The notes beneath the pieces were generated by a model. That model was not told the origin of the DNA and did no database searches. It saw only the letters and a list, made by a program, of their open reading frames with translations. Shown here piece by piece: positions 9,532 to 10,928 of a DNA stretch of 41,435 bases (the stretch's first letter is position 1; every line of letters begins with the position of its first letter). A program made the position numbers and the translations under genes. Source of the stretch: an uncultured delta proteobacterium (GTDB taxonomy: Bacteria; Desulfobacterota; Syntrophorhabdia; Syntrophorhabdales; WCHB1-27); contig CAWEPK010000018.1 in the NCBI GenBank assembly GCA_963810935.1, forward strand, positions 1-41,435, given 5' to 3'.

Positions 9532-9576
9532 ATTTCAAAATCCCCTGCATCCCAAGGACGCAGGGGATTTTGAAAT
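9532..9576 (+). terminator. Terminator-like hairpin after rplC
   Basis: 17-bp perfect inverted repeat ATTTCAAAATCCCCTGC/GCAGGGGATTTTGAAAT. Confidence 0.75.
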
Positions 9577-9628
9577 TATTGGGGCTCAGCGCCCCCTCGC
9601 CGGGCAAAGCCCGCGGAGCCTCCCCCCT
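9574..9628 (-). repeat. REP/MITE-like repeat copy A, left part (split by IS110)
   Basis: AATTATTGGGGCTCAGCGCCCCCTCGCCGGGCAAAGCCC...GAGCCTCCCC is the reverse complement of the 3' end of the copies at 12671-12881 and 14888-15076. Confidence 0.85.
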
Positions 9629-9642
9629 TGTATCTTATATGC

Positions 9643-9820
9643 ATGTTTTCTTACCTGCTGTCATCTGACTATACTTATCCCAGGAAGCATCAGGGTGTGA
9701 CAGGCCGATTCCCCCTTGGGACATATGATCCCGGCGCCGAGCGCGGGTCGTCACACCCCATTCCCTACAAGCTCGGACAGTTGCTTGGGCCTCATGAGCC
9801 CGCATTTCGCAAGGAGGAGC
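9643..9820 (+). ncRNA. Predicted IS110 bridge RNA
   Basis: 5' stem (9643-9690). Target loop closed by GGGTGTGAC/GTCACACCC, holding ATTCCCCCT and GCGCCGAG. Donor loop holding ACAGTTGCT and CAAG. Ends are approximate. Confidence 0.82.
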
Positions 9821-9824
9821 GATA

Positions 9825-10748
9825 GTGGAAAAGTTCGCAGGCATCGATGTGGCAAAGGATACGTTGGAAGTCTTCATTACGCCCGGTACGCAAAAGAGCT
9901 TCCTCAACAATGATGAGGGACGAAAGGAACTCAGCCGGTTCCTCTCAGATGCGCGCCCTGGGCTGGTGGTGCTGGAGGCCACCGGAGGGTACCAGATACC
10001 TGTAGTAGAAACCCTGGCCTTACGCAAACTCCCCGTAGTGGTGGTAAACCCCAGGCAGGTAAGGGACTTTGCGAAGGCAACGGGAAGATTGGCCAAGACC
10101 GATACGATCGATGCGGAGATCATCGCCCGCTTCGCGGAAGCGATAAAACCCGAAGCCAGGCCCCTCAAAGACAGCGATGCCCACCGGCTGCAGAGCTTCG
10201 TTGCCAGGAGAAGGCAGCTCGTCGAAATGCTGACTATGGAGAGAAACCGCCTGGAAACCGCTTCCGATTGGACAAGACCCGATATAGAGGCCCATATCGA
10301 GTGGCTGGCTGACTGCATCAAGAAAACGGACAAGGACATCTCGTCCTTCATACGGAAGACTCCCTTATGGAGGGAAAAGGAGAACCTGCTGAGAAGCGTC
10401 AAGGGGATCGGCCCCGTCAACGCTTCCATACTACTTGCACGGCTCCCCGAGCTAGGTAAGCTCAATAGAAAAAAGATTAGTGCCCTCGTGGGTCTAGCGC
10501 CCTTCAACCGGGACAGCGGCAGGTTTAAGGGAAGGCGCTCTATTTTCGGAGGCAGGGCCGATATAAGGGCAGTCTTATACATGGCGGCCCTCTCGGCCAT
10601 TCGCTACAACCCTATAATCAAGACCTTTTACGAACGCCTCATTCATGCCGGCAAGCTCCCCAAGGTTGCCATCACCGCCTGTATGAGAAAACTTGTTGTT
10701 ATCCTGAATGCCATGATGAGGACCAATACCCCCTGGTGCGCCCAATGA
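9825..10748 (+). CDS. IS110 family DEDD recombinase/transposase
   Basis: GIDVAK, LEATG, KTDTIDA (DEDD), [16 protein letters not shown] (catalytic Ser), ACMRKL; GTG start after AGGAGG. Confidence 0.96.
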
Positions 10749-10773
10749 AAAGCCTTGACATCGAACACAGTTG

Positions 10774-10928
10774 CTCGGCGCGGCGCTCCGCTTGCTTTAT
10801 TGCCGCTGGGGTCCAGCGGCAAGCAGTACCGGGGTTCAGCACCCCCGCCGGGCAAGGCCTCGACGCTTCGCTCCTTACGTCGGGCGGGTGCCCCGCTCCC
10901 TGCTCGGCGCTTCGCATTCGCTCGCTTT
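10774..10928 (-). repeat. REP/MITE-like repeat copy A, right part
   Basis: TTGCCGCTGGGGTCCAGCGGCAA, CTCCTTACGTCGGGCGGGTGCCCC and GCTCGGCGCTTCGCATTCGCTCGCTTT are shared, as reverse complement, with 12671-12830. Confidence 0.88.

Follow-up and report, generated by a model that had tools for sequence, protein, structure and literature searches.

The IS110 element in the window, by which we mean the whole 41,435-nucleotide stretch that was analysed (contig C18 of genome G000), is very probably a recently spreading bridge-RNA element that retuned its right target guide to one host repeat, kept its left guide, and is consequently limited to those copies of the repeat that carry C immediately before the CT core, at target position 7. 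IS110 elements that target REP-like repeats with bridge RNAs are already known, and the element itself is ordinary. Its value is that of a natural experiment, in which about 48 near-identical targets in one genome differ at position 7, a syntenic empty control is available, and the outcome of occupancy follows the laboratory handshake rule for that position.

The element, which we refer to as IS-A, is intact and of the IS621 type, with a length of 1,147 bp counting one core (Table 1). There are four copies in G000, on the window's contig and on C10, C7, and C20, all identical in protein, along with a sister on C8 (IS-B) that is 81% identical at the amino acid level and 78% at the nucleotide level. 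Inside the element the four copies match fully except at four bases at the cut start of contig C20, where the contig edge removes the left end, so that only three left junctions of IS-A are known. An alignment of the flanks of all five copies, a check proposed by an earlier sequence-only reading of this DNA, upheld the ends which that reading had assigned (9627 and 10775) as well as its claim that nothing is duplicated beyond the core, as CT alone is repeated. The same alignment placed all five clade elements of the genome in one host repeat of about 83 nt, the four IS-A copies at one CT and the sister at a CT 7 nt upstream, with changed guides. A boundary one base further left, with the C supplied by the element, was ruled out by this alignment. 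In a search for terminal inverted repeats, no pair among the 25 longest of 50 inverted pairs joined both ends of the element.

The recombinase has matches to PF01548 (E 3e-24) and PF02371 (E 3e-18), that is, a DEDD RuvC-like domain and a Transposase_20 domain with the catalytic serine, and its only solved relatives are the ISCro4 (9t56, E 5e-42) and IS621 (8wt6, E 8e-40) proteins. Residues D8, E51, D93, D96, and S231 align with the catalytic positions of solved family members. There are 198 nt of non-coding DNA 5' of the gene (9627 to 9824) versus 27 nt past the stop codon, and this long 5' end places the element in the IS110 group (IS621-like) as opposed to the IS1111 group.

Table 1. Features of the IS-A insertion and of the host repeat copies in the window (positions are those of the window).
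Feature	Positions	Strand	Basis or remark
rplC (ribosomal protein L3), standing alone	8861-9505	+	PF00297; neighbours the element upstream only in this assembly
21-bp inverted repeat after rplC, putatively terminator-like	9532-9576	.	
Left half of host repeat copy A	9574-9626	+	Repeat HMM, read support; left target positions 1-7 are 9620-9626, with C at 9626
IS110 element IS-A with both CT cores (9627-9628, 10774-10775)	9627-10775	+	Flanks of five copies aligned
Right donor arm	9629-9633	+	
-10-like hexamer, internal, upstream of bridge RNA	9670-9675	+	Recurs in close relatives
Target-binding loop of predicted bridge RNA	9693-9758	+	Left guide 9708-9716, right guide 9734-9741, handshake 9742-9743
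Donor-binding loop	9770-9821	+	Left donor guide 9777-9785, hairpin 9787-9801, right donor guide 9810-9813, handshake 9814-9815
IS110 recombinase, 307 aa	9825-10748	+	PF01548 and PF02371; structure matches ISCro4 9t56 and IS621 8wt6
-35 hexamer, perfect, in right end	10755-10760	+	Recurs in right ends of the clade
Left donor arm (positions 1-7)	10767-10773	+	Same as left donor guide; last base G
Core and right half of host repeat	10774-10801	+	10776-10781 pairs with right target guide
Next tandem repeat copy, empty, TG-type, core 10903-10904	10827-10929	+	Same state and type in G002
purE (AIR carboxylase); reading frame open from 10934, start probably near 11046	10934-11572	+	PF00731
Repeat copy, empty, TG-type	12671-12779	-	
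Repeat copy B, empty, G-type	12799-12880	-	
Diverged repeat copy, empty, G-type, right half changed	14888-14964	-	
Repeat copy, empty, G-type	14992-15075	-	

In the predicted bridge RNA, the donor guides correspond to the ends of the element itself: the left donor guide is identical to 10767-10775, the right one is complementary to the core plus the 2 nt that follow, and in the relatives L003, L004, L031, and L147 the donor variants track the guide variants. The target guides correspond to the insertion site, and the two vary together among relatives. This was determined on 110 related loci of at least 47% identity, 33 of which were parsed and 77 dropped as their ends or anchors were missing, yielding 21 distinct guide pairs that include one misparsed row (L050) and kin that are not independent. 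In 5,000 shuffles of these pairs the left guide-flank match had a mean of 2.42 and a maximum of 3.67, compared with an actual value of 4.48/7, and the right match had a mean of 1.94 and a maximum of 3.05, compared with 4.81/6. The fixed register of this procedure undercounts the sister on C8, which scored 2/7 (5/7 by eye, with a one-base shift).

Of the handshake dinucleotides, CG after the right target guide and GA after the right donor guide, each pairs at position 7 with its non-cognate DNA: in the set of 21 guide pairs, the donor-loop handshake is complementary to target position 7 in 20 (G:C 17, A:T 2, T:A 1; the exception being L004), and the target-loop handshake to donor position 7 in 20, its C facing the donor G. 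A fold of the alignment gave the target-loop stems and a donor hairpin as candidate structures; the single-sequence fold of the bridge-RNA region was no better than shuffles (z -0.45), and that of the predicted bridge RNA buried parts of the guides. We considered and rejected a permuted donor loop, suggested by complementarity between the right donor arm and a 6-mer that precedes the left donor guide, as this arrangement is not conserved in L003 and L004; these two relatives conserve the usual right donor guide, located after the hairpin. The right donor guide and handshake overlap a Shine-Dalgarno-like motif of the recombinase gene (9812-9817), which may couple RNA folding to translation.

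By analogy with IS621, the element would leave as a circle whose junction would form a promoter, and the recombinase and bridge RNA would join donor to target at the CT. On such a circle 9632-9637 would serve as a -10 box with 4/6 matches, 17 bp from the -35 hexamer at 10755. A consensus promoter scan of the linear form found no full promoter, and no circle junction was present among the joints listed (15 of 20, from DNA contigs only).

The parallel to IS621 and its REP targets, drawn by the sequence-only reading with the proviso of a different repeat family, was borne out. IS621 of E. coli and ISCro4/IS622 are like IS-A in recombinase family, in a 5' non-coding end with target and donor loops, in the CT core and handshakes, in a junction promoter (putative in our element), and in an intergenic repeat as the target (PMC11208160; PMC11208158). 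Unlike these elements, IS-A uses a different repeat in tandem direct arrays, its natural right guide matches 6 nt beyond the core, its guide fits a minority allele of the repeat and not the consensus, and position 7 is G in its donor and C in its target.

In G000, nhmmer finds the host repeat 128 times, in 89 cases at full length, which is far above chance. Eleven of the 128 are inside long ORFs, neighbouring copies are always in direct orientation (21/21 adjacent pairs), and the central hairpin has compensatory pairs across 61 distinct full units; the repeat is a multi-copy intergenic palindrome under structural constraint. It resembles REP and BIME sequences in being short, G+C-rich, mostly intergenic, palindromic, and present in more than 100 copies with compensatory changes in the central hairpin. 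It differs from RAYT-associated REP in that it occurs in direct arrays only, no RAYT-like gene flanked by the repeat was found among the nine Y1_Tnp matches in G000 (a 93% complete assembly), and no Rfam family scored above its gathering threshold. The repeat works like REP, minus the flanking RAYT gene. The Y1_Tnp matches are multi-copy IS200-like genes, and such elements lie inside or beside repeat copies at three places (C12:368338-369096, C8:732035-732623, and C16:101159-101748), other copies being neither inside nor beside the repeat. The repeat shows an orientation bias: based on a crude ORF call, 84 of 117 intergenic hits are followed on their 3' side by a gene on the opposite strand. 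Short perfect palindromes occur between tandem copies (10802-10826 and 12780-12800 in the window), and arrays often finish with another conserved palindrome.

The sequence-only reading had correctly placed copy B (minus strand, 12820-12835) as well as the empty sites at 10896-10910, 12689-12703, and 15015-15030, all of which have G before the core. The accompanying statement that empty sites have G holds for the sites near the element but not genome-wide, as the base before the core in the 58 empty sites of G000 with an intact right half is G in 46, C in 6, A in 3, and T in 3. All three known left junctions of IS-A, by comparison, carry C. Using strict patterns, we counted 5 empty C-type and 39 G-type sites in G000 (one G-type site being the right half of the sister's site), and the occupied fraction is 3/8 for C-type versus 0/39 for G-type (p=0.0035). 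The window and C10 copies have the same 27 nt before the core and are possibly not independent; counted once, they give 2/7 versus 0/39 (p=0.02). In the pre-insertion genome only eight sites pair with left-guide positions 2-7 (wobble allowed) and with 6/6 right-guide positions. All eight are repeat copies (a script flagged seven, the eighth came from the HMM list) and three are occupied. A further 42 sites have a fitting left half but another right half, and all are empty. The ortholog of the C7 site in G002 is syntenic, empty, identical over 80/80 nt, and has C before the core, and the G copies in the array of that site are empty in both G000 and G002.

The proposal that a C matching the left guide may explain which site was used is supported in that C is enriched at occupied sites and was already present at a syntenic empty site. 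The left guide need not be the sole cause, because position 7 is read three times, by the left guide and by both handshakes, and because a G closes a hairpin over the core. In the mechanism we favour, the left guide would be that of the clade, retained, and the right guide alone would have been retuned to this repeat subfamily, so that usable copies would be limited to the approximately one in five that have C in position 7. With G instead, the left guide would be mismatched, the donor-loop handshake would find no partner, and the target-loop handshake would already pair before strand exchange; IS621 recombination is blocked by such premature pairing. For IS621, it is reported that handshake pairing with cognate DNA before exchange blocks recombination, while such pairing after exchange helps (PMC11208158), that single mismatches are poorly tolerated, and that donor position 7 is biased against C (PMC11208160); this last bias is the mirror of the present case. 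Two observations run counter to the C rule, a G in the purE-side ortholog of G002 and a G at position 7 in the left junction of the relative L004. The site that L004 occupies, the sole position-7 exception, consists of left target positions 1-5, donor-like bases, and an extra 3 nt, followed by the element. Host escape or depletion of C-type sites was rejected, since the share of C including occupied sites is the same in G000 (9/48) and G002 (11/53; p=1.0). A broken right half is commoner among C-type empty sites (10/16 versus 8/54).

The sequence-only reading had allowed for a homopolymer error in the C run. Indel-type errors do exist in the assembly, in which two rplC copies are frameshifted, but the three assembled copies of the junction agree in length and letters, the C-type form is also found empty in both G000 and G002, and contigs of sequencing runs over 9620-9628, where that reading had asked for a check of the raw reads, confirm that the C before the core is real. 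Contigs of all four sequencing runs showed the left junction with 0 differences, starting at 9618, 9580, 9576, and 9618 and with a depth of 3.1-4.8x single-copy, and we give an error next to no credence. The four runs, taken ahead of X5-X7 because of the small shares of the latter, are from one study and may include the source sample, so they test the letters and not independence. As two of the contigs begin at 9618, where the assembled copies start agreeing, it is expected that no common copy differs inside 9618-9628.

Alternatively, insertion could be blind to position 7 and the C could have been brought by the element or by later gene conversion between identical copies. While the small number of junctions, the left flank common to the window and C10 copies, and the G at the purE ortholog in G002 are compatible with this explanation, we consider it very unlikely. 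Since the donor guide and all five right ends have G, even at targets with C, the C is not carried by the element, and the syntenic empty site of the C7 copy already has C. In addition, the occupied right halves are of the GGCGC subtype in 4/4 cases, and GGCGC goes with C in 5/5 (G000) and 10/11 (G002) strict C-type empty sites versus 22/39 G-type sites in G000.

A third explanation, that G sites are shunned through DNA structure, the G closing a stem that takes in position 7 along with the core and right target, is in our estimation unlikely, though less so than the preceding one. In single-stranded DNA folding, position 7, the core, and right-target positions 10-14 of copy B are 91-97% paired and the core is 88-93% unpaired in two C-type sites; target structure is also described as important for ISPpu10 in a recent report (10.64898/2026.03.19.712850), a gate that would be opposite in sign to the one considered here. 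Arguing against a structural gate is the fact that C is found at target position 7 in 17/21 guide pairs of relatives with unrelated targets and that the handshake covaries. Structure and guide causes are confounded here and can both act.

The relatives of IS-A point to retargeting as the probable origin of the C limit. The sister IS-B is also found in G002 (L002), and both of its target guides differ in accordance with its upstream CT. Its right guide asks for G at the exact base where IS-A asks for C, from which we predict that the sisters partition the repeat by opposite alleles of one base, a prediction based on the guides and on the one full IS-B site seen. Relatives at 70-72% identity (L004, L036, L038-L040, and L045) have nearly kept the left guide, and their right guides fit other subfamilies of the repeat. 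L031 (81%) and L034 (89%) have moved to unrelated targets; L031, on contig C21 of G002, is in a different C/G-rich repeat family, with both target guides changed. By strict pattern the window's repeat subfamily is present in 3/23 genomes, all of this genus, and we infer that IS-A retuned its right guide to a genus-level repeat subfamily and kept a left guide fitting only the minority allele. The clade shows retargeting in progress, with the left guide kept and the right guide tracking repeat subfamilies. All copies of ISPpu9 and ISPpu10 of Pseudomonas putida, ISPa11, and ISRm19, which are IS110-family elements, are in one REP family, and ISPpu9 and ISPpu10 share one REP at the same point, according to PMC1525189. 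Our case is similar in that two elements use one repeat, but here close sisters use two CT cores 7 nt apart.

The flanks of the window copy have a more complex history. The rplC and purE genes are not adjacent in G001 or in G002, the latter having 92-94% nucleotide identity to G000. In both of these genomes purE is preceded by a gene that we take, from its translation, to be marC-like, and its homolog in G000 stands at the start of contig C19, which begins precisely at the repeat. From rplC, the sequence of G002 and of C5 in G000 continues towards what is presumably a malQ-like gene. The search for an empty site downstream of rplC, as the sequence-only reading advised, was consequently aimed at the wrong place, and there is no repeat after rplC in G002. 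It is the purE-side repeat that is empty in G002, with the marC-like gene before it and G before its core. As congeners do not have the two flanks side by side and the empty site on the purE side has G, the join in the window may be chimeric. We lean slightly towards the view that the window copy is not a simple insertion and that its flanks come from two loci as the result of an assembly misjoin, of recombination among copies or repeats, or of a one-ended junction transfer. Contig C2 of G000, which is 98% like window positions 1-9590, ends inside the repeat, and no run contig spans from rplC to the element. One-ended transfers are described for CazIS110-1 in 10.1101/2025.10.25.684509. In favour of a simple insertion are run contigs that give exact support for the left half plus the element (runs X2 and X3) and for the element end plus the purE-side flank (X3, with only 19 nt inside the element), and the resemblance of the window's left half to that of the purE site in G002, although there are 10 copies of that type in G000. 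A two-locus origin changes the history of the window copy, not the targeting rule.

Contig joints that skip the element were rejected as an empty allele, as their sides are only 22-37 nt and fit other repeat copies. There is no syntenic empty site for the C10 copy in G002, which has other DNA and no repeat there, and a search of three genomes gave no match for that of IS-B. The rplC of the window is outside the S10 operon; on C5 (about 312000-314100) rpsJ is followed directly by rplD. The three rplC copies of G000 (C18, C2, and C5) look like strain alleles, and the frameshifts in two of them may be sequencing errors. After the rplC terminator on C5 there is a 437-aa ORF resembling another IS110-family gene (about 364200-365550), which sits in an approximately 8.8 kb insert of the C5 allele relative to G002.

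We tentatively raise, at somewhat less than even confidence, the possibility that IS110 bridge recombinases are not always scarless and leave donor bases in the host repeat, making their own targets less usable, with empty targets in genome G008 and the TG copies in the window as candidate footprints. The subfamily with a right half starting CAAAGACT is found in 6/22 family genomes. In five of these (G000, G002, G007, G011, and G014) the core is preceded by C in 31 copies, by G in 1, and by TG in 0. G008 is the only one of the 22 genomes with an element end aimed at this subfamily, and its 37 empty copies comprise 4 of C-type and 33 with G before the core. A donor-like TG ending is present in 32/37 of them, versus 0/32 in the five genomes without the cognate element of G008, itself a sister element. 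By hand count the TG-ending targets have 15 forms, including one in which positions 6-7 are exchanged in register (5 copies), others that end in donor bases 4-7, and a form in which the left target and core are followed by donor bases 6-9 (3 copies). Eight of the 32 were read in context and are intact repeats without element remains. The donor-like empty targets in G008 include loci L209-L220 and L225-L232.

In such a process, insertion, loss, or an aborted exchange would leave donor bases 6-7, sometimes 4-7 or the whole 4-nt overlap, and the element would turn its own target family into position-7 G forms that are no longer well usable. Staggered cuts like those in the IS621 structures, where the top strand is cut after position 9 and the bottom strand opposite 5/6 with mismatches left to repair (PMC11208158; PMC13626964), would allow donor-base residues and, with mismatch repair, would yield such products. 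If the G008 pattern is a footprint, it bears on the scarlessness of these editors and on the evolution of repeats under attack. Against this reading, the pattern comes from one lineage, G008 being the sole representative of its genus, additional forms could arise by slippage in a TGC run, and L004 is itself at a G site. Recent literature also indicates that copy-out is favoured and the empty site rarely rejoined (10.64898/2026.08.31.748434; 10.1101/2025.10.25.684509), although post-excision junctions are reported in E. coli (PMC13626964). The reaction is called scarless in 10.1101/2025.05.14.653916. A literature search that covered a minority of subscription papers found, among the reports listed, none of footprints or donor-derived bases at empty sites, of guide evolution on repeats, or, under a presumed host genus, of this host repeat.

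Within the window's own subfamily, position-7 G was rejected as an IS-A footprint: G012, of another genus and with no close element found, has G in 18/18 copies of the nearest subfamily, so G is ancestral and no footprint is shown in the window's subfamily. The TG-type copies are unassignable, being present in G001 and G002 as well and associated for the most part with a different right-half subtype. A candidate in G049 was discarded since it has no repeat left half. For other targets, donor-like bases were found in 0/29 empty sites of G046 and 0/5 of G002, as one in-register TG among 11 targets of G053, and in one clear and two doubtful cases out of 89 matches of G061. Isolated empty sites whose core is preceded by donor-like bases are located at C22:27033-27056 in G002, C34:111514-111534 in G053, and C3:128658-128676 in G061.
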